Of a DNA stretch of 64,000 nt, positions 8,888 through 57,923 are shown piece by piece (position 1 is the stretch's first letter; each line of letters begins with the position of its first letter). The notes below the pieces were generated by a model that was not told the origin of the DNA, ran no database searches, and worked only from the letters and a program-made list of their open reading frames with translations. Origin of the DNA: Alphaproteobacteria bacterium (GTDB taxonomy: Bacteria > Pseudomonadota > Alphaproteobacteria > UBA2966); NCBI GenBank assembly GCA_965200265.1, contig OZ241357.1:1731003-1795002 (forward strand), written 5' to 3'. The position numbers and the translations under genes were made by a program.

Positions 8888-9982
8888 ATGCCCCTTTCCC
8901 GTCACGCCGAAATCGCCGGCGCCGGATTCGCCGGCCTGACCGCGGCCGCGGCGCTGGCCCGGCGCGGGTGGTCGGTGCGCGTGCACGAGAAAGGCCCCGA
9001 GGTTCGCGCGTTCGGCGCCGGGATCTGGATCTGGACGAACGGCTGGCGCGTCCTCAAGGCGGTAGGCGCCTACGCGCGGGCGCGCGAGGACGGCTACGAA
9101 AGCCCCTCGATCGAGAGATACGACCACAACGGCAGGCTACTCATGCCGCCGGTCCGGTTCGCCGACCACGGCGCCCGGATGATCGCCGTCGTCCGGCAGA
9201 AGCTGATCGAGGCCCTGCTCGAGACGTGCCTCGAGGCGGGCGTCGACGTCGTCACGGATTCGGAGGTGTCGGGCGCCTCCGAGGACGGCGAACTGAAAAC
9301 CGCCGCCGGCGGGACGTTTCCCGCGGACCTCGTGATCGGCGCCGACGGCGTCAACTCCGCCGTCCGCGATTCGCTGAAGCTGACCCGGCGCCGCAACCGC
9401 CTCGCCTACGGCGGCTCCCGGCTGCTCATCCCGCGCACCGGGGAAGAGATGGCGGACGCGACGGACCGGGTCCTGACCTACGTCAACGGGGAAAGAAGGC
9501 TGCTGTACACGCCCTGCGGGCGGACGCTGACCTATCTCTGCTTCACCGTCCGCCCCGACGACGCGGAGGGCCGCGCCGTTCCGGTCAGAAAGAAGGCGTG
9601 GATCGAGTCGTTCCCGATGCTGGAACACGTCCTGGAGCGCGTGGGGACCGACGGCCGCTGGGACCGCTACGAGGTGATACGGCTCAAGCGCTGGACGCGC
9701 GGGCGGGTCGCCATCGTCGGCGACGCGGCTCACGCCATGGCGCCCTCGCTCGGGCAGGGCGGCGGGTGCGCGATGATGAACGCCCTGTCCCTGGCCGCCG
9801 CCGCCGGAGACGCGGCCGACGTTCCCGGCGCCCTCGCGGCGTGGGAGGAGCGGGAGCGGCCGCTGACCGAACGGGCGCAGCACGTCTCCTCGATGTTTTC
9901 GGGCCAGCGGACGGACTGGCGGCGGCGCGGCATATTCGAAACGGCCCGTCACCGGCCGACGGGCGCCGAGGGCATCGACTGA
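8888..9982 (+). CDS. FAD-dependent aromatic-ring monooxygenase (class A flavoprotein hydroxylase, salicylate/3-hydroxybenzoate hydroxylase-like)
   Basis: HAEIAGAGFAGLTAAAALARRGWSVRVHE (dinucleotide-binding GxGxxG), DLVIGADGVNSAVR, and the GDAAHAMAPSLGQGGGCAMMNA motif. Paralogue of 16442..17644. Confidence 0.85.
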   Translation: MPLSRHAEIAGAGFAGLTAAAALARRGWSVRVHEKGPEVRAFGAGIWIWTNGWRVLKAVGAYARAREDGYESPSIERYDHNGRLLMPPVRFADHGARMIAVVRQKLIEALLETCLEAGVDVVTDSEVSGASEDGELKTAAGGTFPADLVIGADGVNSAVRDSLKLTRRRNRLAYGGSRLLIPRTGEEMADATDRVLTYVNGERRLLYTPCGRTLTYLCFTVRPDDAEGRAVPVRKKAWIESFPMLEHVLERVGTDGRWDRYEVIRLKRWTRGRVAIVGDAAHAMAPSLGQGGGCAMMNALSLAAAAGDAADVPGALAAWEERERPLTERAQHVSSMFSGQRTDWRRRGIFETARHRPTGAEGID

Positions 9983-10022
9983 GCGCCCGTCCCGGAATAC
10001 GCCGTCCCGGCGGGGAACGCGC

Positions 10023-11472
10023 TCACTCGGCGGCGCGGGCGAAGCCTTTCCCGGCGCCGCGCTTCGTCTTCGCCTTCCCGGCCGTCGCCTTCCTGACCAT
10101 CCATTCCGGCTTGCGCGTGGCCTCGGTGCGGACGAACTCCTGCGTCGCCGTGCGCGGATCGGACCAGATTCTCTGCGGCTTTTCCCAGCGGTGGATGCGA
10201 GGCTGCGGCAGCGGAGTCGTGGTATCCACGATCTCGCCGTCCTTCATGACGACGTCGAGACGCTCCTTGTCCTGAAGGACCGTGATGTCGGCCAACGGAT
10301 CGCCGTCGACCACCAGCACGTCGGCGTACTTCCCCTCCTCCAGGGTGCCGATCCTGTCCTCCATGCCGAGCGCGAACGCGGCGTTCCTGGTGCCGGTCTG
10401 GATGGCCTCCATGGCGCTCATGCCGAGCACGTCCTGCATGATCTCGAGTTCGCGGGCGTGCCACTCGCCGTAGGGCACGCTGCTCTGGCCCGAGTCGGAC
10501 CCGGCCATCATCGTCACGCCGGCCCGGTGGGCGCGGGACAGGTTCCTGTGGGCGGCGTCCAGCTCCCGCTTGAGGCCCTCCAGGATCGGCGCGGGACACC
10601 CGAGATCGGGACCCCACTCGACGACGTTGGCGAGCAGGACCAGCGTCGGGTTGATGGGGGTTCCGGTCTCCAGGAAGGCGTCGACGTCCTCCTCCTCGAT
10701 GTACGAGGCGTGAATGATCCAGTCGAACCCCGCCTCGACGGCATCGCGGGCCGCCCGCCGGCCGCGCGCGTGGATGGTGCAGCGCTTGCCGAGAAGGTGG
10801 GTGATCTCCGACACGGCCTTGAGATCGTCGAGCGTCAGGCTGCCGCCCATCCCGCCTTCGCTGCGCAGCACGTCGCCGTCGCCCGAGACCTTGATGACGT
10901 CGACGCTGTCCCGGACCTGCCGGCGCACCTCCTTCACCAGTTCGTCGCGGGTGTTGCACATCACCGAGAACGCGGAAACGGGATGCTCGACCCACGTCGG
11001 GAACACGCTGCCGATGCCGTTGTAGGTCGTGAGGTACTGGGACGCGACCTTCATGCGGGGACCCTCGATCATGCCCGCGTTCACCGCGTCGCGCAGGGCC
11101 GTGGCCACCCGCCAGGTGCCGCCGGGGTCGACCAGGCTGGTGACTCCGGCGCGCAGCACCTTGCGGATGTTGAGCGCGCCGCGCAGGGCCCTGTACTCGC
11201 CCGAGGCGTAGAGGTTGAGCTCCTCGGCCGACGTGACGTCGCCATACGACGTGTGGACGTGCACGTCGATCATGCCCGGCATGACGGTCTTTCCCGTCGC
11301 GTCGATCGTCCGGCAGGCGTTTCCGCACACCTTGGCGGCGTGCGCCTTCACGGCCTCCTCCCTGCCGATCCTGGCGATGCGGCCGTCCTCGATGAACAGG
11401 GCCGTCTTCTTCTTCGGCTTGGAACCGGTCGCATCGAGGACAGATCCGCCGGTGATGAGATAGCGCGTCATG
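10023..11472 (-). CDS. Amidohydrolase-family metal-dependent hydrolase (imidazolonepropionase / prolidase-like fold)
   Basis: MTRYLITGGSVLDATG...MPGMIDVHVH (metal-binding HxH), ...IHASY..., GSDSGQSSVPYGEWHARELE. The start ATG at 11472 was chosen over the track's 11702. The C-terminus is Lys/Arg-rich. Confidence 0.75.
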
Positions 11473-11643
11473 TCACGGGTCCTTCCGTCAATTGCGGCGC
11501 CGGCGGGCGCAACCCGGCGGCGCGGCGTGTTGAACGAACCGGAGGACGGATAGTATACAATCGGAACCGCCGGACGAAACGCCGGCGCGGACGCGGGCCG
11601 GACTCCCCGCGCCGCATTGTTCGAGGGGAAACGGGAGGGCGCG

Positions 11644-12057
11644 ATGCCGGGCGACGGGAAGGTGACGATCGAACTGATGGAAGAGATCAACGCGGCGTTC
11701 AACAGCCGCGATGCGGACCGCGTCGCGTCCTATTTCGCGGAAGACGGCGTCTTCGCCACCGCCCGCGGACCCGACCCCTGGGGCCACCGCGTACAGGGCC
11801 GCGACAACATCCGCGACTTCGTGGCCAGGCGGTTCGAGGTGGTGCCCGACATGAAATGGGAGCACGACTACAAGTACGTGACCGAAAATCGGGCGGTCAC
11901 CGTATGGACCGTCACCGGCAAGAGCGCCGGGGGAGAGACGTTCAACTACCGGGGCTGCGACCTGTACGACTTCAAGGACGGCAAGATCACCTACAAGGAC
12001 ACGTTCTGGAAGATCGTCGACCCCGACGACCTGGGCGGGCTGCCGGCTTCGGAGTAG
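11644..12057 (+). CDS. SnoaL-like / NTF2-fold protein (ketosteroid-isomerase-like)
   Basis: [38 protein letters not shown]... is the typical SnoaL_2 pattern. RBS GGGAGG. Confidence 0.6.
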
Positions 12058-12139: not shown

Positions 12140-13405
12140 ATGCGCCCCGATGCTCCCCGGTCGACCGCGCCGGAAAGGCGGCCCGTGCCCGTAACGGTCC
12201 GCGCCGAGCGCTTGTCGAAGGTGTTCGGCGATTCGCCCGGCGCCGCGCTGGACATGCTCGGCGGCGGCGCGTCGAAGGACGAGATACTGCGGGAGACGGG
12301 CAACGTCGTCGCGGTCTCCGAGGCCGGCTTCGACATCGAAGAGGGCGAGATCTTCATGGTCATGGGTTTGTCGGGGTCCGGCAAATCGACGCTCGTCCGC
12401 TGTCTCAACCGCCTCATCGAACCCACCGCCGGCGCCGTGCTCATCGACGGCGAGAACATCCTCGCCGCCGACGAGGGCCGCGTGCGGGAGCTGAGGCGGA
12501 CGAAGATGTCGATGGTGTTCCAGCACTTCGCCCTGTTCCCCCACAAGTCCGTCAGGGAAAACGCGGAGTTCGGGCTCAAGATCCGGGGCGCCGCGCCCGC
12601 CGAGCGGGGCGCGGCGGCGCTGGAGACCCTGCGCCTCGTCGGCCTGGAGGACTGGGCGGAGCACTACCCCGCCAGCCTGAGCGGCGGGATGCAGCAACGG
12701 GTCGGCCTCGCGCGGGCGCTGGCCACGGACCCCGGCATCCTGCTGATGGACGAGGCGTTCAGCGCCCTGGACCCCCTCATCCGGCGGGACATGCAGGACG
12801 AACTGCTCGACCTTCAGCGCAAGGTCCGCAAGACCATCGTCTTCATCACGCACGACTTCCACGAGGCGCTGAAGCTGGGCGACCGCATCGCCATGATGCG
12901 CGACGGAAAGATCGTCCAGATCGGGCCGCCCGAGGAGATCGTCTCCCGGCCCGCCGACGACTACGTCGCCGACTTCACCCGCGACGTCGACCGGGGCCGC
13001 GTCTTCTCCTGCGCCTCGATCATGCGGCAGGTGCCGCCGCTGCGGCTCGGCGAGGACACGCTCGATGACGCCGTGACGCGGATGCGGCGGGAATCCCGCG
13101 ACGCGCTCCACGCGGTCGACGGCGACGGCAGGCCGCGGGGGCTCGCCCGCGCCGGCGCGGTCGCCAGGTCCGTCCAGGCCGGCGAAACGGAGCTCGCCGG
13201 CGCGCTGGTGGACGGGTTCCCGACGACCCCGGAGACCGCGAGGATCGCCGACCTCTACGCGATGTGCGGCGACGGCCTCCCGATCGCGGTCGTGGACTCC
13301 CGCGGCGCCTACGCGGGCGTGCTCATGCCGCTCGACGTCCTGACCAAGCTCACGCCGGACGCGCCGGACGCGCCGGACCCCGGCGCCGCGCGGCCGCGGC
13401 CATGA
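12140..13405 (+). CDS. proV: Glycine betaine/proline-type ABC transporter ATP-binding protein with tandem CBS domains (ProV/OpuAA family)
   Basis: Walker [25 protein letters not shown] signature, Walker [13 protein letters not shown]-terminal CBS region. Confidence 0.85.
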
Positions 13406-19191: not shown

Positions 19192-19248
19192 ACGTCCATC
19201 TGTTCTCCCCTCGGGGCGCCACTCGGACCTTCGCGAGACACGGCCGAG

Positions 19249-19760
19249 GGTGTGCAAGGTGTGCAATTCGACGCACCGGGTCCGCCCTCCATACGGTGTG
19301 CAAGGTGTGCCATTCCGGGCGCGATCCGGACCTCCGCGGAATGCGCCCGACGGTGTGCAAGCTGTGCAATTCGACGCGCCGGGTCCGCCCTCCATACGGT
19401 GTGCAAGCTGTGCCATTCCGGGTACGGCCCGGACCTCCGCAGGATGCGCCCCACGGTGTGCAAGGTGTGCAAGTCGGCGCGCCGGGCACACCCCCCATAC
19501 GGTGTGCAATGTGTGCCATTCCGGGCGCGGCCCGGACTTCCGCGAGATGCGCCCGACGGTGTGCAAGGTGTGCAAGTCGGCGCACCGTGCCGCGACTGGC
19601 GACTGGCGACTGGCGACTGGCCACCGGCGACCGACCTTAGTGTGCAACGTGTGCCATTCCGGGCGCGGCCCAGACTTCCGCGGAATGCGCCCCCACGGTG
19701 TGCAAGGTGTGCAAGTCGGCGCGCCGCGTCCCGCTCGCCGTTCCCGGCGCCGGGCGGGTT
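19249..19760. repeat. Composite tandem repeat array (about 104-bp dimer unit, roughly 4.5 copies). Each half-unit begins GGTGTGCAAGGTGTGC(A/C)A. Unit B carries the hairpin CATTCCG...CGGAATG.
   Basis: Read directly. Half-units start near 19249, 19295, 19352, 19399, 19455, 19501, 19558, 19639 and 19698. It sits in the convergent intergenic region between the gcvT fusion (+) and the SDR gene (-). Confidence 0.8.
19589..19636. repeat. GCGACTG heptamer microsatellite / REP-like insertion inside the tandem-repeat array
   Basis: gccgcgactggcgactggcgactggcgactggccaccggcgaccgacc shows the same 7-mer logic as the other REP-like elements. Confidence 0.6.
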
Positions 19761-29884: not shown

Positions 29885-30140
29885 ATGGCGACCTCGCGAC
29901 AGGGCTCTCCGCCGATGCAGCGGAGCCTGCCCCCTCTGTCGCTGGACCTGAGAGATTGACCGGCGCGCATCGGGCCACGCGGACCCTGCCGGTTTTCCCC
30001 TTCGGTGGAAGCCGCGCCGGCATCCGCCGCGACTCCGCTTTCCAGAGCGCCGTCCCCCCGCGGTCCTTTCGCCTGAGAGTTTCCGGGGCGGTTGCTCCTT
30101 CGGCGCCGGCTCCCGGAGGAACCGGCCTCTCCCGCGGGGA
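29885..30140 (-). ncRNA. Glycine riboswitch (tandem aptamers) in the gcvH-gcvP leader
   Basis: Reverse complement reads ...CGGGAGAGgccggttcctccgggagccggcgCCGAAGGAGCAAccgccccggaaaCTCTCAGGCGAAAGGACcg (aptamer 1), then CTCTGGAAAGcgg...CCACCGAAGGGGAAAAccgg...CTCTCAGGtccagcGACAGAGG (aptamer 2). This matches the conserved glycine-riboswitch cores. Confidence 0.8.
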
Positions 30141-30228
30141 TCGTCCGGCTGTAGCCGCGATGATAGGCGGCGCCCAGCCCCTGTCAACCGCCGGACGCGG
30201 CGGCCGGGGCCACCCTCGTCACCGGCCG

Positions 30229-31421
30229 CCTTCAACGTCACCTCGGCGCTGGGCCGAGGGATATGACGATCACACGCTTGTTGCCCGGCGATACGACGCC
30301 CTTCAACGTCACCTCGGCACTTGGCCGAGGGATACCGGGCTCAACTGCCACACCCCCATCCACATCCCCTCCCTTCAACGTCACCTCGGCGCTCGGCCGA
30401 GGGATACAACGCACGGGCGCGCCCGGCGATATCGGACGCCATCCTTCAACGTCACCTCGGCGCTTGGCCGAGGGATATTCGGTAGCGGCGCGTGCCGTCG
30501 CCCAGGACTTCGGCCCTTCAACGTCACCTCGGCGTTTGGCCGAGGGATACGCAGGTCGATGCCCGGATCGATGCGGCGATTCCGGCCCTTCAACGTCACC
30601 TCGGCGCTTGGCCGAGGGATACGCGGGCGGCGGGGTGGCCGCCGAGATCGTCGTCGACCTCCTTCAACGTCACCTCGGCGCTTGGCCGAGGGATACGACT
30701 CGACGCTAGCGGACGTCGCCTGCGCCGACGGCCTTCAACGTCACCTCGGCGCTGGGCCGAGGGATACCGTTCGAGGCCGCCCGGTCCGGGTCCGGGTACA
30801 GCGCCCTTCAACGTCACCTCGGCGCTGGGCCGAGGGATACCGCCCACCGGCCCGAAGAACGACGCCGCCAGCGCGACCCTTCAACGTCACCTCGGCGCTT
30901 GGCCGAGGGATACTCACCGCGCAGTCGCCGATCGAGGCGGCGGAGATCAGCCTTCAACGTCACCTCGGCGCTTGGCCGAGGGATACGCAGCGCCGGGTGC
31001 GTGATCTCGACCCCCGACAGGACCTTCAACGTCACCTCGGCGCTGGGCCGAGGGATACCCGGGCCTTGTCGTTCAGCGCCGCGTGCCACTCGAACCTTCA
31101 ACGTCACCTCGGCGCTGGGCCGAGGGATACCGCGCAGGCGCTGGCGATCGGCGACGTCGTGCCCCACCCTTCAACGTCACCTCGGCGCTGGGCCGAGGGA
31201 TACGCCCTCGTTGATCGCCTCGCGCTTGTCGGCGCGGGCGTCCTTCAACGTCACCTCGGCGCTGGGCCGAGGGATACTGTCGTCCGTGTGACGCGGTGGC
31301 GGCGCAGGCCGGACCTTCAACGTCACCTCGGCGCTGGGCCGAGGGATACCCCGTCGACACCGGCCTCCTCCAGCGCCTTGAGCGCCCTTCAACGTCACCT
31401 CGGCGCTGGGCCGAGGGATAC
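30229..31421 (-). CRISPR. CRISPR array of 17 repeats and 16 spacers. 36-bp repeat GTATCCCTCGGCCCAGCGCCGAGGTGACGTTGAAGG (transcribed strand), spacers 35-39 bp.
   Basis: Plus-strand repeat CCTTCAACGTCACCTCGGCGCTGGGCCGAGGGATAC, period 71-73 bp. Internal 7-bp stem CCTCGGC/GCCGAGG with single-base loop polymorphism (ctGggcc / ctTggcc / ctCggcc / ttTggcc). The 5'...TTGAAGG 3' end and the adjacent minus-strand cas genes fix the transcription direction. Confidence 0.95.
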
Positions 31422-31556
31422 GGCGGCCTCGCGGGCCGTTGATTCGAGACGGATATTTCCCCTGATTTCGAGAGCCTCCCCGTTCCTCGCGTTTCACGCT
31501 TTCCGCGGGATCGGCCGCGAGCGCGCAAGCCGTTGATCCGACGCCCGGTTTCGCGA
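31422..31556 (-). promoter_or_regulatory. CRISPR leader
   Basis: 135-bp non-coding, comparatively AT-richer segment between the csb2 stop and the first repeat (...gattcgagacggatatttcccctgatttcgagag...). Confidence 0.6.
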
Positions 31557-33008
31557 TCACGAACCTTCCCGAGTCCGCCAGCCGCCGCCGGCCCGCGCCC
31601 AGTCCTCGATTCTCGTCGGCAGGAACAGTCCGAGCCCGTATCCGATGCCCGCGCCGAGCAGGACCGGCCCCGCCACCGGCTCCTTCCATCGAATGGACAT
31701 GTGCTGACACGGATAGCCCGCCAGGTGACGGGGCCGGTCGTACCGGGACGGCATGTCGCTCCCGCGCAACCGGCCGGCGGGCTCCATGGTCGCGCTTTCC
31801 AGCATCGCCTCGGGGATACCCGCGCGCCGCAACAGCCGCCGCACCGAGCGTTCCGGCCGCGGCCGGCCGCGCCGGTGGTCGCGCCCCCACAGCACGACCG
31901 GCGTCGCCGTCGTCCATGCCTGCGCCTCTCCGTAATATCGGGCGAGTATCCGGTCGGCGCCCGCGATCGGCGTCAGCATCCCGGCTGGCTCCGTCTGCCC
32001 TTCGGGGATCAGTTCCGCTCCGATCAAGCGGTGCAGCACGCCGAGCCAGTCGTCCTCCTCGACGCTCTCCGGCGCCGTCAGCATGACCCTCCTGATGCGG
32101 CCGTCGGCGTGTTCGTGCCCGACGTTGGGCAGGGGATGGACCCGTATTCTCCGTTCGCCCCCGTGTCCCATCAATTCGGAGATCGTCCTCTCCGCCAGAC
32201 CCGCGCGCCGCGCCGCGCCGCCGATCGCGTGACGCGCCATGGCCGCGACCGCCATCGCCCGCGTTCCCTCGAACGAGAGCGGCCGCTCGTCCATGTCCTT
32301 CAACGCGAACGCCTCGCACCGGATCGGCGGCAGGTCCTGTTCCGACATGTAGCCCTCCTGCCGATGGTCCGGCTCCGGCACCCCGGCCACCCCCCCGTCC
32401 GGCCCGATACGGCCGCGGAATCGGCAGTATCGCTTTTCGAGAACGTCGAACGCCCCCGGGTAGGGGACGTTCAGCCGACGTTGCCCCGTCGGCGACTGCG
32501 TGTACGCGACCCCCGGCGGACGCGCCGGCCGGTCCGCGAGTTCGAGGCGCGCGACGGCGGAGTCGATTCCGTGCCCGACCGCCGAAACCGACTCGACGAT
32601 CTCCTTCAACGCCCCGAGATGGCGTTCCGTCTCCGTGTCGGCGTCCCACTGGTAGGTCACCGCGCCATCGAGGCTGCGCGGACGCCGGACCCGGGGCGTC
32701 GTCGCTTCTCGGGCTTTCTTGAAAGCGTCCGCGCGCTTGCCTTTGGCGAAGAGATCAAGCATCCGGTCGCCGTCATTGTTCGGAACGAACGACCTCACCG
32801 GCGCTCGGTCCTCGGCTTCCGGCGCATGGATCGTCGGCGGGTCGAGCCTTTCGAGATGCCGCATGGCCGCTTCCAATGCCCGGTCGCCGCGCCGATGCAC
32901 GGCGTACCCCGCGATCATCGCCTGATAGAGCCGGAGCGGCGAAGGCGGCCACTCGGCGCCGTGATAGGTACGGTCGAGCCAGTCGACGGTCACGCGAAGC
33001 GTCGGCAT
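31557..33008 (-). CDS. csb2: Type I-G/I-U Cas5-Cas6 fusion (Csb2 / GSU0054 family)
   Basis: 484 aa starting MPTLRVTVDWLDRTYHGAEWPPSPLRLYQAMIAGY..., the Csb2 N-terminal signature (EWPPSP). RBS GGAGAAGAAAGGG. The first 203 codons of track ORF 31557..33617 are out-of-frame junk. Confidence 0.65.
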   Translation of the reverse strand: MPTLRVTVDWLDRTYHGAEWPPSPLRLYQAMIAGYAVHRRGDRALEAAMRHLERLDPPTIHAPEAEDRAPVRSFVPNNDGDRMLDLFAKGKRADAFKKAREATTPRVRRPRSLDGAVTYQWDADTETERHLGALKEIVESVSAVGHGIDSAVARLELADRPARPPGVAYTQSPTGQRRLNVPYPGAFDVLEKRYCRFRGRIGPDGGVAGVPEPDHRQEGYMSEQDLPPIRCEAFALKDMDERPLSFEGTRAMAVAAMARHAIGGAARRAGLAERTISELMGHGGERRIRVHPLPNVGHEHADGRIRRVMLTAPESVEEDDWLGVLHRLIGAELIPEGQTEPAGMLTPIAGADRILARYYGEAQAWTTATPVVLWGRDHRRGRPRPERSVRRLLRRAGIPEAMLESATMEPAGRLRGSDMPSRYDRPRHLAGYPCQHMSIRWKEPVAGPVLLGAGIGYGLGLFLPTRIEDWARAGGGWRTREGS

Positions 33009-33013
33009 CGGCC

Positions 33014-34152
33014 CTACCCTTTCTTCTCCTCGAACATCGCCATCGCCTTGGCAATCTTGAACTCGTGATCCTTCGGTTCGCCGCCGAGTGCAACGCCGGC
33101 CGTTTCGGACCACTTCTTCGCAATCTCGTCGACCTCTTCGAGAACGGCGCTCTCGTCGACCTCGATCGACCGCCGCTCGCCGCCCCTGGTGACCGCCCGC
33201 CATTCGGCCGGCGCGGCGGGCACGAGGGAACATCCCGACCGGAGATCGTAGTCCCCGCCGCCGACCAGCAGCCCGCCCAACGCCAAGCCGAGCAGGTAGT
33301 TCGGCAGAACGTCGCTCCCGTCGTCGGTCCGGTATTTCCTGATGGCGTTCAGCAGAATCGAGGCCGAGTGGACGATCTCGCCATGCGCCAGGATTCCTCC
33401 GCGTGCGCCGTCGTCGTCCGTCGCCGGCGTCGGAGCTAAGCCGACCCCCGCGGCGCCACCTTTCTTCCTGCTCCAGATCTTTTCGTCTATGCCGAGTTCC
33501 TCCCGCTTGAAAGCTCCCGAGTATTGGGCCGACCGCGTGAAGACCGAGACGTCGTGGGCGCGGATCTCCGATCGAACGACCCGGGGAATCTTCACCTGCG
33601 TGTCGCGGGAGTCCCACGCTCCGTAGACCAACGACGTGGGAGCGGCTTTGGCGAGAGGCACCGGTTTTCCCCTCTCAAAGTCCCGCATCCACTCGCGAAT
33701 GTCGTCGGCGAGGTCCGTGGCGCGTATCGAGGCATCGACGATGCGATGGGGCAGTTTCGTCAGTTCGACTCGGTGATCGCCTGCCTGTACCGCGTGTTGC
33801 GGAACGACGCCGGCGAGCCCGTCCGTGAACGCCGCTTCCATCCGGTTGGCCTGCGACTGGTCCGGGGTCGTCGGGGCCGGGCGGCGGCGGGTGAACGCCG
33901 CTTCCATACGGTTGGCCTGCGACTGGACCGAGTCGAGATCGCAGACGAGCACGCCATCCTTCGTTTCGTTGACGGTGTAGGGCGTATCGTGACGGTGTAT
34001 CCCCGTCTTCTCCGGAGCAGGATAGGTCGGTGGGAAGATCGGCACGCCGGGGCCGTCTATCGATTCCAGCTTCCGCTTGAACGTCAAGGCGACGACCTCC
34101 CGGTCGGCCACAAGACTCTCGATCAGCTTCCCGTTCCCGGTCGCTTTCGACA
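33014..34152 (-). CDS. cas7: Type I-G/I-U Cas7 (Csb1 / GSU0053 family)
   Basis: 379 aa from MSKATGNGKLIESLVADREVVALTFKRKLESIDGPGVPIFPPTYP..., RBS AAGGAGAA. Contains an in-frame 66-bp tandem duplication (QSQANRMEAAFT x2). Confidence 0.65.
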
Positions 34153-34193
34153 TGGAAAAGTTCTCCTTGTTCGGTGAATCCGCGAAAACGACC

Positions 34194-34973
34194 TTATGCC
34201 GAATCCGCGCGGCGGAGCACCGTGTTTTCCCCCGACTTCCCGGTTTTCGAGACGAACAACCCATCCGTCGAGTAGACGCCTGGTCCGTGATCGCCGAACG
34301 CGGCAATCGCAACCGCCATGGACGACGGGCGCCACAGGCGGTAACGGAATCCGCCCTCCCTGCTTCCCTGAACGGGAAAAGCCTGGAGGCCGACCGAGGC
34401 GAGAAGTCCCACCCAAGGCCGGCACGACATCTTGATCCCATGCTCGTTGAGGCTGAAACCCATTTCCAGGGCGTTCCAAGTGCAGTCCGTATCGACGTTG
34501 AAGATGGCTCTGCGTTCGGGCTTTCCCTTGACGTCAGGTGGCGCCCTGTGGATCGTCCAATCGGACGGATTCGAATCCCCGACGGCACTGAACAGGTTCT
34601 CGTGAACCGTCAACGCGGATTGATTCCCCGCCCATATCCTGAGCTCCGGGTTCAATCCCCAAGCCTTCAATTTCTCGTCGCCCTTCTTCCTCTTACCCTC
34701 CCGGCTCGGGTCCGTCTTCTTGAGGACTTCCCCACCGTCCATCCACCAATCGAGTTCGACGCCGGCGAAACGAAGGCCGTCCGCCGTCTCTTCGGGCGAC
34801 GCCTTCGCCAGGCGCTCGAACGGCGCCGAGAGATCCGGCGCGACGAAGCGGCGCCGGTGGCCGTCCCGCTCGAAACCGGTTTCCGCCGCCCGGTCCTCGC
34901 GCCACGCGAGATGCGCCAGCCCGGCGCAGGCGAAGACCTCTCCGGGATTGCGGGGATCGATGACCCACTCCAT
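34194..34973 (-). CDS. csb3: Csb3-like small type I-G/I-U cascade subunit (Cas8u-equivalent position)
   Basis: 260 aa, MEWVIDPRNPGEVFACAGLAHLAW..., lying between cas3 and cas7 as in Csb-variant I-U loci. The assignment rests on position and recalled family features only. Confidence 0.45.
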   Translation of the reverse strand: MEWVIDPRNPGEVFACAGLAHLAWREDRAAETGFERDGHRRRFVAPDLSAPFERLAKASPEETADGLRFAGVELDWWMDGGEVLKKTDPSREGKRKKGDEKLKAWGLNPELRIWAGNQSALTVHENLFSAVGDSNPSDWTIHRAPPDVKGKPERRAIFNVDTDCTWNALEMGFSLNEHGIKMSCRPWVGLLASVGLQAFPVQGSREGGFRYRLWRPSSMAVAIAAFGDHGPGVYSTDGLFVSKTGKSGENTVLRRADSA

Positions 34974-34980
34974 CGCGCCC

Positions 34981-37605
34981 TCACGCCTCGCCGCGGCTCG
35001 GCGCGCGCGACGCATGGGCGTCCGCCGCCTTCAGAAGGGCCTCCAGCCATGCGAGACGCCACGGCCCGTACTTCGCCTGGAGGCGCACGAAGCGATTCGC
35101 GGCTTCGACGGCGAGTTTCCGGTTCAACTCGACCGGAACGTCCGGGTCCCACTGCCGGGGATGGGGGAAGCCGGGCCGCGCCCAGCCGTGGTGCGCGGCG
35201 ATCAGGTGCAGAGCAAGGTCGCGATTCGGCGCGTCCACCGGAATCTCCCGTTCCGCTTCGACGAGGGAGCCGAACTCGTGGCGGTAGCCGCCGAGCATCC
35301 ACGAGCGCAGCCGCCCCTTCGTCGATTTCGCGAGAGGCGGCCCGTCCGCCGGCGCGCCGGCCGCCCGCTGCCACACATGCCTCGCCTTTCCCCGGTCGTG
35401 CCAGCAGCCGGCGGCCTCCAGCGCCGCGGTCTCGGCATCGGTGAGCGAAAGCGCCGCGCCGATCCGGCGCGCCGCGTCGCCGACCAGCGCGCAATGTTCG
35501 TCGACGGTCTGGGTCGAGGCGCCGAGCCAGGTCGTCTCGCCTTCGCCCGCCTGGAGCGTGGGGTCGGGGCGGCGAAGCGCATAGACCAGAAAGCGCTCCC
35601 CGGCGTCGTCTTCGCCCTCGTCAGGCAACGGGATGCGGAGTTCGACGGCCTTCTTCAGCCAGTCGGGACGCGGCGCCGCGCTTTCGTCTTCCGCTTCTTC
35701 CGCCTCCTCCCCGTCTTCCCTTTCCTCCCCGCCGGGAGCCGGCTCCCTGTAACGGTATCGATCGTCGCCGTCGCCGACGTCGGAAACCTCGCCCTTCGCG
35801 GTACTTGAAGGAAGGCCGGAAGGCTCCAGACCGCCCGCCGTCGCCGGCAGAACGACGGTCGCGTAGCCGAGCGGGGGGATTTCGGCCTCGCTTTTCACGG
35901 CCTTCGTCAGCACGTCGCCGCCGGGCTCGATCACGATCAGAGGCAGTCCATCGTCATCTCTCCATCTCCGCACCGCCGCCTTGATCACGTTTCGCGCCTC
36001 CGACGCCGGCACGCGCGCGACCTCGTCGGCGCTCGGGCGGAAGAAGGCGAGCACCTCCCCGGCGACGCCCTCGCCAAGCCGCACCAGACCGGCGACCTCC
36101 CGCTCCCGGCGCCACAGGAGAAAGCTCTCGGGCGTCTCCGGGTCCTCCGACACGCCGCGCAGGTAGACGGAAACGGGCGGAAGCCGGAGCGCCGCCGACG
36201 TCGCCGCAAACGCCTCGACGACCTCCGCGTGAAGCCGCGCCGGCCGGGACGACGGCGCGGAGCACGTTTCGAGGGCCGATTTGTCGATGCCCTTCAGAGT
36301 CGCGGGGGAAAGGTCGGGAAGGCCCCGGAGCACCTCGAGCGTCTTCGCGCGGGCCGCGTCGAGCTTTTTGCCACGTGTCGTCGGCGGCTTGCCGTCGTCC
36401 GGTGTCTCCTCTTCCTTCCTCGTGTGGACGACCGCGACTTCCGCCTCGACGCGCCCCGACCGGTTCACCCGGCCGACGCGCTGAATCATGGAGTCGAGGG
36501 TGGCGAGGTCCATGACGGCATGATCGGCGTCGAGATCGACTCCGACTTCGCCGGCGGACGTCATCACGAGGTAGACCGCAGGAGCGCCGGCATCGCGGTC
36601 GCGGTCGCGGTCCGGGCGGAAGCGCCGCCACACCGCACCCGCCGCCAGCCCGGCGCGCTCCTTTCCGCGGAGCGTACCCGTCAGCAGGGCGACACGCTCC
36701 GCGCCGCCGGCGCCCAGCTTCTTCGTCAGCTTGTCCGCGATCTTCCCGGCGGCCTCGACGGTTCCGACGAATACGGCGACGGAACCAGCCTGGTGGGCGG
36801 CGGCCAGTTCGCAGATACGGTCGATACGATTGCGGTCGGCGGGCTTCTCGACCGGATGGAATTGCGGCGTCTTGACCGCGCGCAGGCGGCGGCGGACCTC
36901 GGGGTTCTCTTCGTCCTTCGCGGAGAGGGAAAACACCGCCGACGCCTTCGCGCCGGTCGCCGAAAGCGTCATGGTTCGGAACTTCGGGTGGCCCTGTATC
37001 CCCTCGACGGCACGGAGGAAGGCGTCCATCGCCGGCGACAGATGCGCCTCGTCGAGCATGACGATGCTGTCGTGGCCCAGCAGGCCGGCGTGCATCGGCC
37101 GGCGCGACCGCCCGTCTCCGTAACCGGAGAACAGGACGCGGGAGCCGATCATGTCGACGGTGCCGACGACGACCGCCGGCCTGGCGGGATCGACCCGCCA
37201 CTCCCCGTCGTCGGCCATGCCGCCGCGCAGGACGCCGAGTTGGACGGGGCGGTCGGGCGAGAGCCGCGCGAACGCCGAACACCGGTCGAATGCGTCGGCG
37301 AGCGCAGGCAGCTCGACGATGCGCTCGATCCACGCCCGGATCGCCTCGGCCGTCTGATCGACGATGGCGCGCCTGTCGACCACGTAGACGACCCGCGCCG
37401 GGAGCGCCGGGTTCCGGACCCGCGCGAGCAGGAAGAGCAGGACGCAGAGGGTCTTGCCGAGCCCGGTCGGGACGTCCACGGCTTCGGGGACGTCCCCTTC
37501 GACGAACTTCCCGTACATGCGCCGCTGCCAGGGATAGGGATCGGACCCGACGATCTCCCGGAACCAGGGGACGGCGATTTCAGCGCCGCGCCGCGCGTCG
37601 GTCAC
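34981..37605 (-). CDS. cas3: Cas3 helicase-nuclease with C-terminal HD domain (type I-G/I-U architecture)
   Basis: N-terminal DEAD/DEAH helicase (VPTGLGKTL Walker A, MLDEAH). C-terminal HD nuclease motifs (CWHDRGK, HLIAAHHGW). GTG start at 37605 with RBS GGAGGG. Confidence 0.85.
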   Translation of the reverse strand: MTDARRGAEIAVPWFREIVGSDPYPWQRRMYGKFVEGDVPEAVDVPTGLGKTLCVLLFLLARVRNPALPARVVYVVDRRAIVDQTAEAIRAWIERIVELPALADAFDRCSAFARLSPDRPVQLGVLRGGMADDGEWRVDPARPAVVVGTVDMIGSRVLFSGYGDGRSRRPMHAGLLGHDSIVMLDEAHLSPAMDAFLRAVEGIQGHPKFRTMTLSATGAKASAVFSLSAKDEENPEVRRRLRAVKTPQFHPVEKPADRNRIDRICELAAAHQAGSVAVFVGTVEAAGKIADKLTKKLGAGGAERVALLTGTLRGKERAGLAAGAVWRRFRPDRDRDRDAGAPAVYLVMTSAGEVGVDLDADHAVMDLATLDSMIQRVGRVNRSGRVEAEVAVVHTRKEEETPDDGKPPTTRGKKLDAARAKTLEVLRGLPDLSPATLKGIDKSALETCSAPSSRPARLHAEVVEAFAATSAALRLPPVSVYLRGVSEDPETPESFLLWRREREVAGLVRLGEGVAGEVLAFFRPSADEVARVPASEARNVIKAAVRRWRDDDGLPLIVIEPGGDVLTKAVKSEAEIPPLGYATVVLPATAGGLEPSGLPSSTAKGEVSDVGDGDDRYRYREPAPGGEEREDGEEAEEAEDESAAPRPDWLKKAVELRIPLPDEGEDDAGERFLVYALRRPDPTLQAGEGETTWLGASTQTVDEHCALVGDAARRIGAALSLTDAETAALEAAGCWHDRGKARHVWQRAAGAPADGPPLAKSTKGRLRSWMLGGYRHEFGSLVEAEREIPVDAPNRDLALHLIAAHHGWARPGFPHPRQWDPDVPVELNRKLAVEAANRFVRLQAKYGPWRLAWLEALLKAADAHASRAPSRGEA

Positions 37606-37642: not shown

Positions 37643-38185
37643 TCAGCGGCCGGACCGGTTGTATTCGAGTTGCTCCGGCGTGAGCTGGAAACCGATCAGG
37701 ACCTGATGACGCCGGCCCGCGTCCGGCCCCGAAACCGGGATCCGCTGGGTCACGACCTCCTCGACCGCGACCCTTCGGCTTCCCGCCGGGAACCCGGCGC
37801 GGCTCTCGAACGTCTCCTTGGCGATCACCCGCCCCTCCGGGTCCACGACGGCGGCGAAAAACTCGACGGACGCCGCGTCGACGTCCGCCTCGGGACCTCG
37901 CGTCGAGACGATCTCGAAGGCCGTCTCCACCTCCACCGACCCGCCGCCGTAGTCGCAGGTCGACCGCAAGTTCGAGATGTCGGCCGCGACGGCGACGTCG
38001 GCGACGCCGCGGCCCGGACCGGGCTTGAACAGGACCAGGCGTTCACCATCGGCCAGAACGGCGACGTCCGGGCACGACGACGAGGCGCCCGGATCGCGAG
38101 AGCCGCACGCGCCCGACGCGAGAAGGACGGCCAGCGCCAGCGCCCCGACGCCAGCCTTGCCGCCGGCCTTGCGCGACGGCGTCAT
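37643..38185 (-). CDS. Predicted lipoprotein of unknown function
   Basis: [29 protein letters not shown] is a lipobox (LASGAC). No recognisable domain. Confidence 0.5.
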
Positions 38186-38225
38186 CGCCTCCCGGCCCTC
38201 GCCGGCGCGCCCGTCACGGGGACCG

Positions 38226-38465
38226 TCACAGGGAATTGTGGGTTCCATCGCAGTACGGTTCGTTCCCCGTCCGCTTGCAGCCGCAGAAGAAGACGGTCTT
38301 GCTCTCCCCGGCCTCCAGGATCACCGGGGTGAACTCCGTCGTGCTGTGCGATCCGTCGCAGTACGGCTGCCTGCCGCTCAGACCGCAGCGGCACCACGCA
38401 TACCGCTTCCCCTGCTCTATCTCCTCGGCGTAGGGAGCCTTTTGCGCGACAACGGGTTCCGACAT
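38226..38465 (-). CDS. CDGSH iron-sulfur domain protein (two CDGSH motifs)
   Basis: [17 protein letters not shown] and [17 protein letters not shown]. Confidence 0.8.
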
Positions 38466-38648
38466 GCCTTCACCGCCCTTCCGTCCCGGTTGCGTTCGCG
38501 GTCCGCGGCGTCCCCGGGGACGTCGACGGCGCCGTTCCGCCTATCTAATACCGATGGTCCGGCGCGGAGTCGAGCCGTATATGGCCCGGGCCGCCGCACG
38601 TCTCGTCAGGCCGGCGGCCTTCGGTTAGACTCCGCTGCGATTCTCGAC

Positions 38649-39593
38649 ATGAACAAGCCGTCCCTCCGAATCCTGCTGGCCAGTCCCCGCGGCTTCTGCG
38701 CCGGGGTCGACCGGGCGATCCTGATCGTGGAAAAGGCGCTGGAGGTCCACGGCGCGCCGGTGTACGTGCGCCACGAGATCGTCCACAACCGGACGGTCGT
38801 GGAAGGCCTGGAGGCGCGCGGCGTGGTGTTCGTGGACGAGCTCGACGAGGTCCCGGAGGAGGCGGTCGTCGTCTTCTCCGCCCACGGCGTGCCCAAATCG
38901 GTCCCGGAGGAGGCCCGCCGCCGGGGGCTGACCTTTCACGACGCCACCTGCCCCCTGGTCGGCAAGGTCCACGCCGAGGCCAGGCGCCATCACGCCGCCG
39001 GGCGCCGGATCATCCTCGTCGGCCACGCCGGCCACCCGGAAGTCGTCGGCGCCATGGGGCAGCTTCCCGACGGCGCCGTCCTCCTGGTCGAGACGGTGGC
39101 GGACGCCGAGGCCGTCGACGTGGGGGATGCCGGCGGCCTGGCCTTCGTCACGCAGACGACGCTGTCGGTCGACGAAACGGCGGACATCGTGGCCGCCCTC
39201 CGCCGGCGTTTCCCCGACATCGCCGGGCCGCGGTCCGAGGACATCTGCTACGCCACGACGAACCGCCAGACGGCGGTCAAGCGGATCGCCGGATCCTGCG
39301 ACGCCTTCCTGGTGGTCGGCGCGCCCAACTCCTCCAACTCCCTGCGCCTGAAGGAGACCGCCCGCCGCCACGGCTGCGCGCGCGCGGCGCTCATCCAGCG
39401 GGCCGGCGACATCGACTGGAGCATGTTCGACGGCGTGCGGACGCTCGGCGTCACCGCCGGCGCGTCGGCGCCGGAGCTTCTCGTCACCGAGGTGATCGAG
39501 GCCTGCCGGCGGCGCTACGAGGTCTCGATCCACGAGGCGCCGGTCGCGCGCGAGGACGTCAGCTTCAAGCTCCCGCGCGCCCTCGACGTCTGA
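38649..39593 (+). CDS. ispH: 4-hydroxy-3-methylbut-2-enyl diphosphate reductase
   Basis: [24 protein letters not shown]..., ...HDATCPLV..., ...YATTNRQ (conserved Cys ligands). Confidence 0.95.
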
Positions 39594-41123: not shown

Positions 41124-42014
41124 ATGTCCGATCCATATCCAATAATGGAGGTGCGCCCGGAATGGGTCCTGCTGCCCGAGGAAATGGGGAGCAAGACGAA
41201 GCTCTGGTATTCGCCTCAAGAAGATCAGGAGGCCCATTGGCTTTTCAAACACCCCAGGGAAGGAACGGGCGAGCATTGGGCGGAGAAGATCGCGGCGGAG
41301 GTCGCCTCCATCCTCGGAATCGCGCACGCGAAGGTCGAGCTCGCGCGGTTTCAGGGAAACCGCGGGTCGGCGACGGAATCGTTCGTCAGTCCGGGGGAAA
41401 CGTTGGATCACGGCAATCAGGTGTTGGAGAGAGTCCTTCGGGACTACGATCCCGAGAAGACATTCCGTCAGTTCAGCCATACCCTGGAGAACATATGGCG
41501 GGCGATCGACGATGTTTTCGTCGAGCCGGCAGCCCGAGAATCCGCGAGGTTCCGTTTCGCGGAGTATCTGGTTCTGGATGCCCTGATCGGAAACACGGAC
41601 CGACACCACGAGAACTGGGGCATACTGCGCGGACGCGCCGACGACCGGGAGAGCCTCATGGCGCCCTCGTTCGATCACGCATCCTCGTTGGGGCGGGAGC
41701 TTTCGGATGAGCGCCGCGACAGGCTCTTGGCCGAGAGCCGCGTGGGGGACTACGCCGAGAGAGGACGTGGCGCGATCTACTGGTCGGCGAACGAGCCACA
41801 CGGCCCCAGCCCGCTGGAACTGGCGCGGCGCGCGTCTCGACGCCATCCGGAGCTCTTCCGTCCGGCATTGACGAAACTCGAAAGACTGGACGAAGGCGCA
41901 ATGAACGGCCTCGTGGATCGCGTGCCCGCCTGCTGGATGACCCCCTCAAGCCGCGAGTTCGCGGTCGCGTTGATGCGCTACAATCTCGAACAGCTGGAAG
42001 GGCTCGTCCGATGA
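41124..42014 (+). CDS. HipA-homologous Ser/Thr kinase, HipT-like (kinase core only, lacks the HipA N-subdomain-1)
   Basis: 296 aa. Gly-rich loop EEMGSKTK, catalytic loop LIGNTDRHHENWG (D/H/N), Mg-binding APSFDHASS (the HipA APxYD motif). Confidence 0.75.
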   Translation: MSDPYPIMEVRPEWVLLPEEMGSKTKLWYSPQEDQEAHWLFKHPREGTGEHWAEKIAAEVASILGIAHAKVELARFQGNRGSATESFVSPGETLDHGNQVLERVLRDYDPEKTFRQFSHTLENIWRAIDDVFVEPAARESARFRFAEYLVLDALIGNTDRHHENWGILRGRADDRESLMAPSFDHASSLGRELSDERRDRLLAESRVGDYAERGRGAIYWSANEPHGPSPLELARRASRRHPELFRPALTKLERLDEGAMNGLVDRVPACWMTPSSREFAVALMRYNLEQLEGLVR

Positions 42015-56060: not shown

Positions 56061-56352
56061 CGCCAATCCCGTCTCCTCGTTGCGGGACCCCGGGCGCCGG
56101 TCCAGCCACGTGGCCGAACGGCCGCCGGTTGCCCGGACCCGGACACGATCGCCGGCACGGCGCGGCGCGGGCACGGGTCCAAGCGGGCGGTCTCCGGCCG
56201 CTTCCGCAGCGCGCCGACCCGCCGACCGGCCAGCCCGCGAATCGGCCCGGAGGGTACACCAGGGAGGGCGCCGGCGGCAAGACCGCGAAACCGAAAATCG
56301 CGTCGATCTTTCGGCGTTCCTCCGGGCGCCCGGTCCGGGCGCCCGGCCGCGG

Positions 56353-56709
56353 CTACGGAAACAGCTTGAGGGCGGCGACGATCAGGCCGCCGACGGCGAT
56401 GACCAGCCCGCCGAGGCGAAGCATCGACTTGTCCGCCACGGCGTCGATCTTCTCATCGAGACGGACGATCTTCGCATCGAGACGGGTGATCTTCGCATCG
56501 AGACGGGTTTCAAGATTGGCGACCCCGGTCTTGAGGTTGGCGATGTCGGTCTTGATATCGGCTACGTCGGCCTTGCTGGCGACGCCTTCCGCAACGGCGT
56601 CGCGGACGGCCTCGGCGTGCGCTTCGGCCTGGACGTCGTCCACACCGGCCGCTTTCAGCCGCCGCGCGAAGGCGAGCGTATCGAATCCGGGCGTCCCCGT
56701 CGCGGTCAT
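56353..56709 (-). CDS. DUF1640-like coiled-coil protein with C-terminal TM anchor (copy A)
   Basis: MTATGTPGFDTLAFARRLKAAGVDDVQAEAHAEAVRDAVAEGVASKADVADIKTDIANLKT...SMLRLGGLVIAVGGLIVAALKLFP. Confidence 0.55.
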   Translation of the reverse strand: MTATGTPGFDTLAFARRLKAAGVDDVQAEAHAEAVRDAVAEGVASKADVADIKTDIANLKTGVANLETRLDAKITRLDAKIVRLDEKIDAVADKSMLRLGGLVIAVGGLIVAALKLFP

Positions 56710-56833
56710 GGCGGCACGATAGACCGGCCCGGCCCCGGCCACAAGCGCAAGGAGAGGGCGCCGCGCCCGGTCAAGATGCAGGGCAATCGCATCCGGAAAT
56801 TCCGGGTGGCCCTGCGATAGCCGGCGGCCGCGG

Positions 56834-57148
56834 CTACGGAAACAGCTTGAGGGCGGCGACGACCAGGCCGCCGACGGCGATGACCAGCCCGCCGAGGCGA
56901 AGCATCGACTTGTCCGCCACGGCGTCGATCTTCGCATCGAGACGGGCGATCTTCGCATTGAGACGGGTTTCAAGATTGACGACCTCGGTCTTGAGATCGG
57001 CTATGTCGGCCTTGCTGGCGACGCCTTCCGCAACGGCGTCGCGGACGGCTTCGGCGTGCGCTTCGGCCTGGATTTCGTCCACACCGGCCGCTTTCAGCCG
57101 CCGCGCGAAGGCGAGCGTATCGAATCCGGGCGTCCCCGTCGCAGTCAT
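56834..57148 (-). CDS. DUF1640-like coiled-coil membrane-anchored protein (copy B)
   Basis: Same N- and C-termini as copy A with a shorter coiled-coil segment. Confidence 0.55.
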   Translation of the reverse strand: MTATGTPGFDTLAFARRLKAAGVDEIQAEAHAEAVRDAVAEGVASKADIADLKTEVVNLETRLNAKIARLDAKIDAVADKSMLRLGGLVIAVGGLVVAALKLFP

Positions 57149-57273
57149 GGCGACACGATAGACCGGCCCGGCCCCGGCCACAAGCGCAAGGAGAAGGCGC
57201 CGCGCCCGGTCAAGACGCAGGGCAACCGCATCCGGAAATTCCGGGGGGGCCTTGCGGTAGCCGGCGGCCGCGG

Positions 57274-57627
57274 CTACGGAAACAGCTTGAGGGCGGCGAC
57301 GATCAGGCCGCCGACGGCGATGACCAACCCGCCGAGGCGAAGCATCGACTTGTCCGCCACGGCGTCGATCTTCGCATCGAGACGGGCGAACTTCGCATCG
57401 AGACGGGTTTCAAGATTGGCGACCTCGATCTTGAGATTGGCGACCTCGATCTTGAGATCGGCGACATCGGTCTTGAGATCGGCGACATCGGTCTTGAGAT
57501 CGGCGATGTCGGTCTTGAGATTGGCAATGTCGGTCTTGATATCGGCTACGTCGGCCTTGCTGGCGACGCCTTCCGCAACGGCGTCGCGGACGGCTTCGGC
57601 GTGCGCTTCGGCCTGGATTTCGTCCAC
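57274..57627 (-). pseudogene. DUF1640-like copy C, 5'-truncated by a deletion between GCCGCGC direct repeats. Carries a 7x 21-bp intragenic VNTR.
   Basis: Relative to copies A and B it lacks the ATG and the first ~20 codons. An ORF remains only from an in-frame GTG (VDEIQAEAHA...). The coiled coil is expanded by (D/T)(I/V)A(D/N)LK(T/I) heptads encoded by 21-bp tandem repeats at 57400-57560. Confidence 0.45.
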
Positions 57628-57747
57628 ACCGGCCGCTTTCAGGCGCCGCGCCCGGTCAAGACGCAGGGCAATCGCATCCGGAAATTCCGGGGGGCCCTGC
57701 GACAGCCGGCGGCCGCGGCACGGTATCGAGAACGGAGCGCCCGAGAA

Positions 57748-57921
57748 TCATCCGGTCGCACGCGCCCAGGCCACCGCATCGGCCACGTCGGTCTCCGTGA
57801 TGCCGGGCCCGGCCAGCTTGGCGCGCACCGCGTCGGCGCGGTTCACGCGCACCGGAGTCAGCACGATCCGTCCGTTCTCCTCGGTCACGTCGAGATACTC
57901 GCTCCCCTCGACGGCGGACAT
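57748..57921 (-). CDS. Small ORF (57 aa) resembling the C-terminal half of a MazE/AbrB-fold protein, 2 nt downstream of the giant adhesin gene
   Basis: MSAVEGSEYLDVTEENGRIVLTPVRVNRADAVRAKLAGPGITETDVADAVAWARATG, compared with MazE ...[33 protein letters not shown]. Confidence 0.3.
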   Translation of the reverse strand: MSAVEGSEYLDVTEENGRIVLTPVRVNRADAVRAKLAGPGITETDVADAVAWARATG

Positions 57922-57923
57922 CG

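Follow-up and report, generated by a model that had tools for sequence, protein, structure and literature searches.

A type I-G CRISPR-Cas locus without adjacent adaptation genes in an uncultured alphaproteobacterium, and spacer turnover among its relatives

The stretch of alphaproteobacterial DNA analyzed here (64,000 nucleotides [nt] of contig OZ241357.1, called the window throughout) carries a chromosomal type I-G interference module, cas3-cas8g2-cas7-csb2, together with its own CRISPR array. The module belongs to a branch of I-G loci that have no adjacent cas4-cas1 or cas2, and we consider that new spacers are probably integrated into its array in trans. Taken alone, the locus is nothing out of the ordinary: an uncultured alphaproteobacterium of high GC content has an I-G interference module. 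What is new is comparative: the adaptation-less branch, the turnover of arrays within a species, the apparent antiquity of the locus at its chromosomal site, the clean loss of the locus from a sister genome and a suspicious insertion in Cas7.

Subtype and gene identities

NCBIfam, Pfam, PADLOC and Foldseek agree that the locus is of subtype I-G (coordinates in Table 1); its variant is probably Cas8g2/Csb3. An earlier note on this DNA had read it as a type I-G/I-U system of a Csb variant, and profile hidden Markov models (HMMs) uphold that reading and assign no other subtype. Cas3g matches TIGR02621 over residues 14-867 (631 bits against a cutoff of 400), and the C-terminal HD domain that the note had described is placed by the cas3_HD model of NCBIfam at residues 702-856, behind a helicase core whose domains (DEAD, Helicase_C and Cas3-like_C_2 in Pfam) occupy residues 27-400; the GLGKT, DEAH and HD/HH motifs are visible in the translation, and PADLOC also assigns Cas3g (E = 8e-170). 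The two further genes named in the note, cas7 (csb1) and the cas5-cas6 fusion csb2, were likewise recovered. Cas7g scores 117 bits with TIGR02570 (cutoff 38) and 116 bits with PF09617 (Cas_GSU0053), each match falling in two stretches, and is assigned by PADLOC as well. Csb2 scores 207 bits with TIGR02165 (cutoff 45; residues 3-462 of 481) and 111 bits with PF09609 (Cas_GSU0054), is called Cas56g by PADLOC (E = 9e-66) and is 100% identical to a database protein of 483 amino acids (aa), P0001. An AlphaFold model of Cas7, made with 52 homologues as input (mean predicted local distance difference test score 80.9), had as its best Protein Data Bank (PDB) match in Foldseek 8ANE_A, which is Cas7 in the experimental structure of a type I-G effector (E = 2.7e-11). 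Sequence searches of PDB chains with phmmer, using Cas7, Csb2 and a Csb2 profile, gave no meaningful match, and the Cas7 fold search alone succeeded. The Csb2 alignment contains an invariant histidine in the C-terminal domain, which appears to fit the position of the catalytic histidine of the Thioalkalivibrio enzyme, a positional fit and not a residue-for-residue mapping.

The 259-aa gene between cas3 and cas7 had been described as a csb3-like small subunit. It is of the csb3 type, but NCBIfam names the family Cas8g2 and not a Cas11-type small subunit; in that naming the protein would be a short variant of the I-G large subunit, by a match to TIGR04106 (E = 1.2e-19, 71 bits) that lies under the curated cutoff of 125 bits. 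Pfam gives no match for this gene. A homologue is found at the equivalent position in every related locus, and the orthologue in the metagenome contig L059 is 96% identical and has the same start, MEWVIDPRNPG. Across cas7 and cas8g2 the G+C content dips to 0.63-0.66, against 0.70-0.73 in the surroundings.

No adaptation genes in the window or beside the related loci of its branch

That the window contains no cas1, cas2 or cas4, as the earlier note had stated, is upheld by profile HMMs and by PADLOC. Cas2 and the Cas4-Cas1 fusion were first recognized by Pfam in two related Acidobacteria loci, and iterated HMMs were then built from 27 Cas2 and 29 Cas4-Cas1 sequences of related I-G loci. Run with the HMMER filters off against all six-frame open reading frames (ORFs) of at least 50 aa in the window, these models gave no match at E ≤ 20. 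From 71 candidate ORFs, PADLOC reported only Cas3g, Cas56g, Cas7g and PDC-M03 among the best 25 of 60 matched families. Because Cas4g/Cas1g is so strongly conserved (more than 70% identity over hundreds of database proteins), a copy in the window would not have been missed. A cas1-cas2 pair just outside, within the same operon, is excluded since housekeeping genes bound the operon on both sides. The Cas4-Cas1 fusion is the only commonly listed I-G feature that the locus lacks, and it is not the signature by which the subtype is assigned.

When the GTDB species representatives were scanned for Csb2 by profile, 58 loci were retrieved, which were compared together with flanks of 10 kb at most (some contigs are shorter). 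The order cas3-cas8g2-cas7-csb2 recurs in every locus that is not truncated or fragmentary. In 27 loci, mostly from Acidobacteria, cas2 and cas4-cas1 adjoin the effector genes, the pair lying between csb2 and the array, and on the Csb2 tree the Acidobacteria-rich branch almost always has both. All loci whose Csb2 is at least 36% identical to that of the window have no adaptation genes in their 10-kb flanks, and in these loci the array, where present, starts at most about 300 bp from csb2. On a neighbor-joining tree of Csb2 some 20 adaptation-less loci form a single branch, with members in Alpha- and Gammaproteobacteria, Longimicrobiales, Dehalococcoidia, Phycisphaeraceae, Thiorhodococcus and Halorhodospira. 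A scan of Joint Genome Institute (JGI) metagenomes with the repeat consensus added four contigs, each with the four cas genes and an array and without adaptation genes. A conserved accessory gene in the locus flanks, as a possible substitute for Cas1, was not found; the only apparent clusters were translated CRISPR repeats. One relative, L062, has a module 80-89% identical to that of the window (synonymous divergence [dS] 0.17-0.49) in a wholly different neighborhood, and the module therefore also moves horizontally. From these comparisons, the absence of adaptation genes appears to be a stable trait of a mobile, multi-phylum branch.

Could such a module, compact (about 7.4 kb), horizontally mobile and devoid of adaptation genes, be a transposon- or plasmid-borne minimal system that serves RNA-guided transposition or competition between mobile elements, in the manner of CRISPR-associated transposons or type IV systems, which also lack adaptation genes? 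The data already contradict this explanation and we give it a negligible probability. CRISPR-associated transposons and other derived minimal type I systems are marked by the loss of Cas3 and by linkage to Tn7-like tnsABC/tniQ genes. In the window, Cas3 is present with its helicase and HD motifs intact; no transposase, TniQ or integrase is found in the flanks, where the neighbors are housekeeping genes (gcvH/P, ispH, thrB-like and rnhA); no flanking gene is common to the loci; the arrays are long; and the repeat family was not found in IMG/VR viral contigs.

The loci differ in the number and placement of their arrays. Five of them (L003, L005, L006, L007 and L008) have an intact-looking cas3-cas8g2-cas7-csb2 set and no detectable array within 10 kb, two of these array-less copies (L007 and L008) occurring in one Dehalococcoidia metagenome-assembled genome (MAG). 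One Pseudomonadales MAG has two identical loci, both with arrays (L010 and L011). In Halorhodospira neutriphila (L013) there is an array on either side of the cas operon, at 4719-5227 and 11553-11844. On the strand of the cas genes the repeats have the sequence ...CTTCAAC..., by which both arrays appear inverted relative to the operon, unlike those of the other loci of the branch.

Array structure and spacer turnover

Leader and array follow csb2 directly, with the 135 bp and the 17 repeats given by the earlier note, all of whose listed elements are present at its coordinates. On the minus strand the 36-nt repeat unit is GTATCCCTCGGCCCAGCGCCGAGGTGACGTTGAAGG, which ends at its 3' side in GTTGAAGG. 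Repeat finders gave a repeat spacing of 71-74 nt across all copies, and the spacers are unique, 35-38 nt long and of 63-79% G+C. The repeat is laid out as 5 + 7 (stem) + 5 (loop) + 7 (stem) + 4 + 8 nt, the last 8 nt being GTTGAAGG, and its hairpin, with a 7-bp stem and a 5-nt loop, has a computed folding energy of -14.3 kcal/mol. The single-base polymorphism noted earlier in the loop (G/T/C on the plus strand) is real and corresponds to C/A/G at loop position 2 on the minus strand. Three more single-base variants occur, and two repeats begin with ATATCC; this variation is mostly leader-distal, as is normal for the part of an array that is oldest. In the leader, alignment with relatives brings out three conserved blocks upstream of the first repeat, CTCGAAA, ATATC and AATCAAC, which are kept even where Csb2 identity is only 71-80%. 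No promoter of the sigma-70-like kind was detected in the leader by a consensus scan, and in Rfam no CRISPR-DR family passed the threshold, the glycine riboswitch of the flank being the only family that did.

Three metagenome contigs (L059, L060 and L068) share the synteny of the window, from AhpC to the AI-2E transporter, at 95-98% nucleotide identity, and dS in the cas genes between the window and these same-species relatives is about 0.05. Their arrays lie at the same site and have the same repeat, and they contain none of the 16 spacers of the window. L060 has the 12 spacers of L059 in the same order and two extra ones at the leader end, a difference that would be the classic footprint of polarized acquisition. 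Two pairs of JGI contigs, L064/L067 and L065/L066, are alike in their trailing flanks and again have no spacers in common. Of the repeats in the window's array, the six nearest the leader do not differ from one another and all have loop variant C, which is found at that position in some repeats of L068 and in none of L059 or L060. Spacer 15 of the window and spacer 9 of L068 are about 77% identical in the same register, and their alignment score, 19.5, is above that of any of 21,063 shuffled pairs, the highest of which scored 12.5. Because the surrounding DNA differs by only 2-4%, the two look independently captured and not ancestral, as would be expected of homologous protospacers taken from diverged invaders. 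Arrays reach 19 repeats in the same-species relatives and 24 elsewhere in the branch.

Taken together, the turnover of spacers, the leader-end difference, spacer 15, the loop variant and the leader motifs argue that arrays in this branch are renewed, those of the window's own lineage apparently included. The earlier note had proposed that the array is either maintained in trans by another locus or frozen. For the lineage, the different spacer sets of the relatives and the polymorphism at the leader end argue against the second of these options.

Two lesser observations on spacers may be recorded. Spacers 10 and 16 of L068 resemble each other by eye, with a score (12.5) no better than that of the best shuffled control. 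In L002 one spacer occurs twice in a row (12305-12482), which points to an intra-array duplication.

The targets of the spacers were also sought. Compared as a concatenate with phages and plasmids, the 16 spacers gave chance-level partial matches only (E ≥ 0.02), and no self-targets were found in the window or in the fetched loci. Six 24-nt seeds searched against IMG/VR gave a single match, to the first 24 nt of spacer 1 (28/36 positions), which we rejected because it has no TTN-like protospacer-adjacent motif (PAM) and falls in a generic ALKALEEA coding motif. With a host that has not been cultured, a lack of targets is no surprise, and little can be concluded from it in either direction.

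The source of new spacers

By homology with the I-G system of Thioalkalivibrio, the array would be transcribed from the leader on the minus strand, and the Cas6-like C-terminal domain of Csb2 would cleave every repeat at a site 4 nt 3' of its 7-bp hairpin. The products would be CRISPR RNAs (crRNAs) of about 72 nt, in which the spacer is preceded by the 8-nt 5' handle GUUGAAGG and followed, on the 3' side, by a hairpin handle of 28 nt. Cas7 multimers, Cas8g2 and Csb2 would then assemble on the crRNA, and Cas3g would be recruited to nick and unwind matching DNA. The locus itself would be unable to make new spacers, and Cas1-Cas2, with or without Cas4, would be encoded elsewhere in the genome and act in trans. 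There is experimental precedent for such borrowing in other CRISPR types (PMC8092290). Adaptation in trans is the simplest mechanism, and a supply of this kind seems to us the likeliest account of where the spacers come from.

Several of our observations weigh against this interpretation. No trans-acting Cas1-Cas2 was found; with Cas4g/Cas1g as the query, none of the best 120 of 8000 matches could be traced to the carrier genomes. The difference between L059 and L060 could reflect the loss of two spacers and not a gain, and complete replacement of spacers could come from recombination with other arrays. No convincing protospacer was found in the phage, plasmid or IMG/VR collections, so that no PAM could be derived for comparison with the TTN motif of I-G interference. 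The tree that defines the branch is a neighbor-joining tree without support values, and the Cas8g2 assignment has the sub-cutoff score given above. Finally, the ratios of nonsynonymous to synonymous divergence (dN/dS) in the cas genes, at 0.4-0.5, indicate only moderate constraint, and the Cas7 insertion described below lies in a segment that has no length variation among the other homologues examined, so that interference may be impaired.

Another explanation is that the branch renews its arrays without any dedicated Cas1-Cas2, through recombination, exchange of arrays or whole modules, or an unrecognized integration activity. The absence of adaptation genes throughout a clade that spans several phyla speaks for it, as does the finding that the repeat family occurs only beside adaptation-less loci in both the genome and the metagenome scans; the horizontal mobility of the module, seen in the unrelated contexts of L062 and the window at a dS of only 0.17-0.49, and the duplicated spacer of L002, which indicates intra-array recombination, speak for it as well. 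However, no conserved accessory gene accompanies the loci, and the polarized leader-end difference between L059 and L060, the conserved leader motifs and the uniform spacer length of 35-38 nt are together the normal signature of integration by Cas1-Cas2. As the use of another system's adaptation module in trans is moreover documented for other CRISPR types (PMC8092290), we hold renewal without Cas1-Cas2 to be very improbable. A broader proposition is that the loci constitute a phylum-spanning, monophyletic I-G branch that has long been without a Cas4-Cas1-Cas2 of its own and yet turns over its spacers, either as an obligate borrower or by renewal free of Cas1-Cas2. In this full form we think the proposition improbable.

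The Cas7 insertion and the loss of the locus from a sister genome

The cas7 gene of the window contains a private in-frame insertion (Table 1), flanked by direct repeats of 40 nt (33825-33864 and 33891-33930). It duplicates the QSQANRMEAAFT segment and lies immediately after the universally conserved motif DSVQSQANRME. Neither the 96%-identical orthologue nor the homologues in about 58 other loci have the insertion, and a length of 379 aa is found in none of the other 119 database matches listed, which range from 282 to 371 aa. In the AlphaFold model of Cas7 the conserved helix is retained and the extra residues form a low-confidence loop.

What became of this locus elsewhere is shown by a sister genome, L058 (OY282368.1), which is collinear with both flanks of the window at 88-91% nucleotide identity and is without the locus of about 7.3 kb. 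At the same position it has a scar (9883-10119) composed of three pieces. The first is the region upstream of cas3 together with the first 59 nt of cas3, in which GTG is mutated to GTA; the second, joined almost directly to the first, is a stretch of about 90 nt from close to the 3' end of csb2 (window 31672-31585) that stops some 25 nt short of the stop codon; and the third is the DNA just past the array, joined via a short CCGGCGG-like microhomology. The common ancestor therefore already had the locus at this site, and the L058 lineage then lost it by deletion. These sequences suggest a long residence of the locus at its chromosomal position, and its gain and loss as a unit. In a Paracoccaceae MAG (L056, 9935-10267), only a C-terminal fragment of csb2 is found (residues 405-462, 56% identity), with no cas3, cas7 or cas8, and this fragment may likewise be what is left of an I-G module that was lost.

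Is the locus of the window itself a relic? On this explanation the array would no longer be updated, interference would be compromised by the 22-aa insertion, and the locus would be heading for a deletion like that in L058. The insertion does follow directly on DSVQSQANRME, beside the most conserved motif of Cas7 and in a segment without insertions or deletions in about 58 homologues, and it may weaken the system in this genome. Deletion has occurred in L058, which lost the whole locus and kept a scar; L056 has only its csb2 fragment; the five relatives without an array within 10 kb have cas genes all the same; and no spacer matches a phage or plasmid, nor are there adaptation genes in the 64 kb. 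Yet all four cas ORFs are intact, the insertion is in frame, and dN/dS in the cas genes (0.36-0.52) is below 1. The model of Cas7 keeps the conserved helix and consigns the extra residues to the low-confidence loop. The six identical leader-proximal repeats with a loop variant unseen in L059 and L060 suggest additions in the window's own lineage, and spacer 15 looks independently acquired relative to spacer 9 of L068. We therefore regard a frozen or decaying relic as unlikely, and an interference module that obtains its spacers in trans as the better account.

Comparison with known systems

The closest described layout is that of the Geobacter sulfurreducens I-G system (GSU0051-GSU0054, the Cas8g2/Csb3 variant), whose GSU-named NCBIfam models match all four effectors of the window. 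The related I-G loci have the gene order of the window, and the repeat length of 36 nt is a further similarity. The Geobacter-type layout, however, includes a Cas4-Cas1 fusion and Cas2 (PMC10333696), as do the Acidobacteria loci, whereas the window has neither in 64 kb and its array comes directly after csb2; a further difference is the weak Cas8g2 match (71 bits against 125). For Thioalkalivibrio sulfidiphilus, experiments placed the Csb2 cut 4 nt 3' of a stem of 7 bp, which results in a 5' handle of 8 nt (Shangguan et al., 2022; PMC9638904), and the repeat anatomy of the window, with its 7-bp stem, 4 nt and 8-nt handle, matches that mapped cleavage pattern. The effector of that organism (PDB 8ANE/8B2X) resembles ours in its Cas7 fold and in having Csb2 as a Cas5-Cas6 fusion. 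It differs in having a long Cas8g1 (Csx17), with cas4-cas1 nearby beyond five intervening genes, where the window has a short Cas8g2 and no adaptation genes.

Adaptation-less I-G loci are not new in themselves, for a survey of myxobacteria recorded the I-G adaptation module as Cas1-Cas2, as Cas4/1-Cas2 or as lacking (PMC11237760). That survey did not describe a monophyletic, cross-phylum branch without adaptation genes, its spacer turnover or scars of its loss, and the loci considered here, unlike the myxobacterial ones, come from an uncultured alphaproteobacterium and other MAGs. Effectors with an array, without an integrase of their own and nonetheless acquiring spacers are known from type VI: Flavobacterium VI-B uses the Cas1-Cas2 of a II-C system in trans (PMC8092290), and Listeria VI-A borrows the Cas1-Cas2 of another system (bioRxiv 2024.10.25.620265). 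Both of these belong to class 2, target RNA and have a donor system that has been identified, whereas the window has a class 1, type I system whose donor is presumed.

We suggest that the branch provides a clean natural test case for effector modules that obtain their spacers in trans, and the scar in L058 illustrates the way in which they disappear. Should the donor in trans prove to be of a different CRISPR type, or to be absent, this would bear on the rules by which Cas1-Cas2 recognizes repeats and leaders.

Genomic surroundings

On the array side, the locus is followed by a promoter-like site, a glycine riboswitch, gcvH, gcvP and ndk. The cas3 side begins with a small ORF for a secreted or lipoprotein-like product and continues with the genes for a CDGSH protein, ispH, a thrB-like kinase and rnhA. 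The CDGSH protein and ispH had both been named in the earlier note and are confirmed; the lipoprotein it placed next to cas3 exists as an ORF (37643-38248, minus strand) that has no Pfam match and is a plausible lipoprotein.

Table 1. Features of the CRISPR-Cas locus and its flanks (window coordinates).
Feature	Coordinates	Strand	Description
cas3g	34981-37605	-	874 aa; superfamily-2 helicase with C-terminal HD nuclease
cas8g2 (csb3)	34194-34973	-	259 aa; short large-subunit variant (match under curated cutoff)
cas7g (csb1)	33014-34153	-	379 aa; Cascade backbone subunit
Private in-frame insertion in cas7	33827-33892	-	66 nt, 22 aa; residues ~88-109
csb2	31557-33008	-	483 aa; Cas5-Cas6 fusion, I-G signature gene; predicted pre-crRNA endonuclease
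Leader	31422-31556	-	135 bp, from csb2 stop codon to first repeat
CRISPR array	30229-31421	-	17 repeats, 16 spacers
Tandem glycine riboswitch	29934-30144	-	70 and 39 bits; ahead of gcvH-gcvP
zf-CDGSH protein	38226-38465	-	
ispH	within 37977-39593	+	

The promoter-like site, a near-consensus TTGACA-16-TATCAT, begins about 40 nt past the last CRISPR repeat, and promoter and riboswitch together occupy 29934-30187 on the minus strand. Because a consensus scan found no terminator-like site between the array and the riboswitch, read-through from the array could enter the gcv leader.

A second variable defense cassette lies 3.3 kb from cas3 (~41130-42757, plus strand), where both components of PDC-M03, a candidate defense system in PADLOC, are matched, by a HipA_C-like kinase and a HIRAN-domain protein (E = 1e-85 and 4e-77). 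The two genes are of lower G+C content (0.63-0.66); the pair is present in L059, L060, L061 and L068 and has no counterpart in the sister genome L058.

Two repetitive regions are located farther off. At 19224-19587 a unit of 103 nt occurs in 3.5 tandem copies (87% matches), apparently non-coding, with the sub-motif GGTGTGCAAGGTGTGC repeated within each unit. An ORF of more than 2000 aa on the minus strand (56300-63998) runs past the end of the window; it has a very high G+C content at third codon positions and many internal tandem repeats with periods of 21 and 360 nt, and it probably encodes a repetitive surface or secreted protein.

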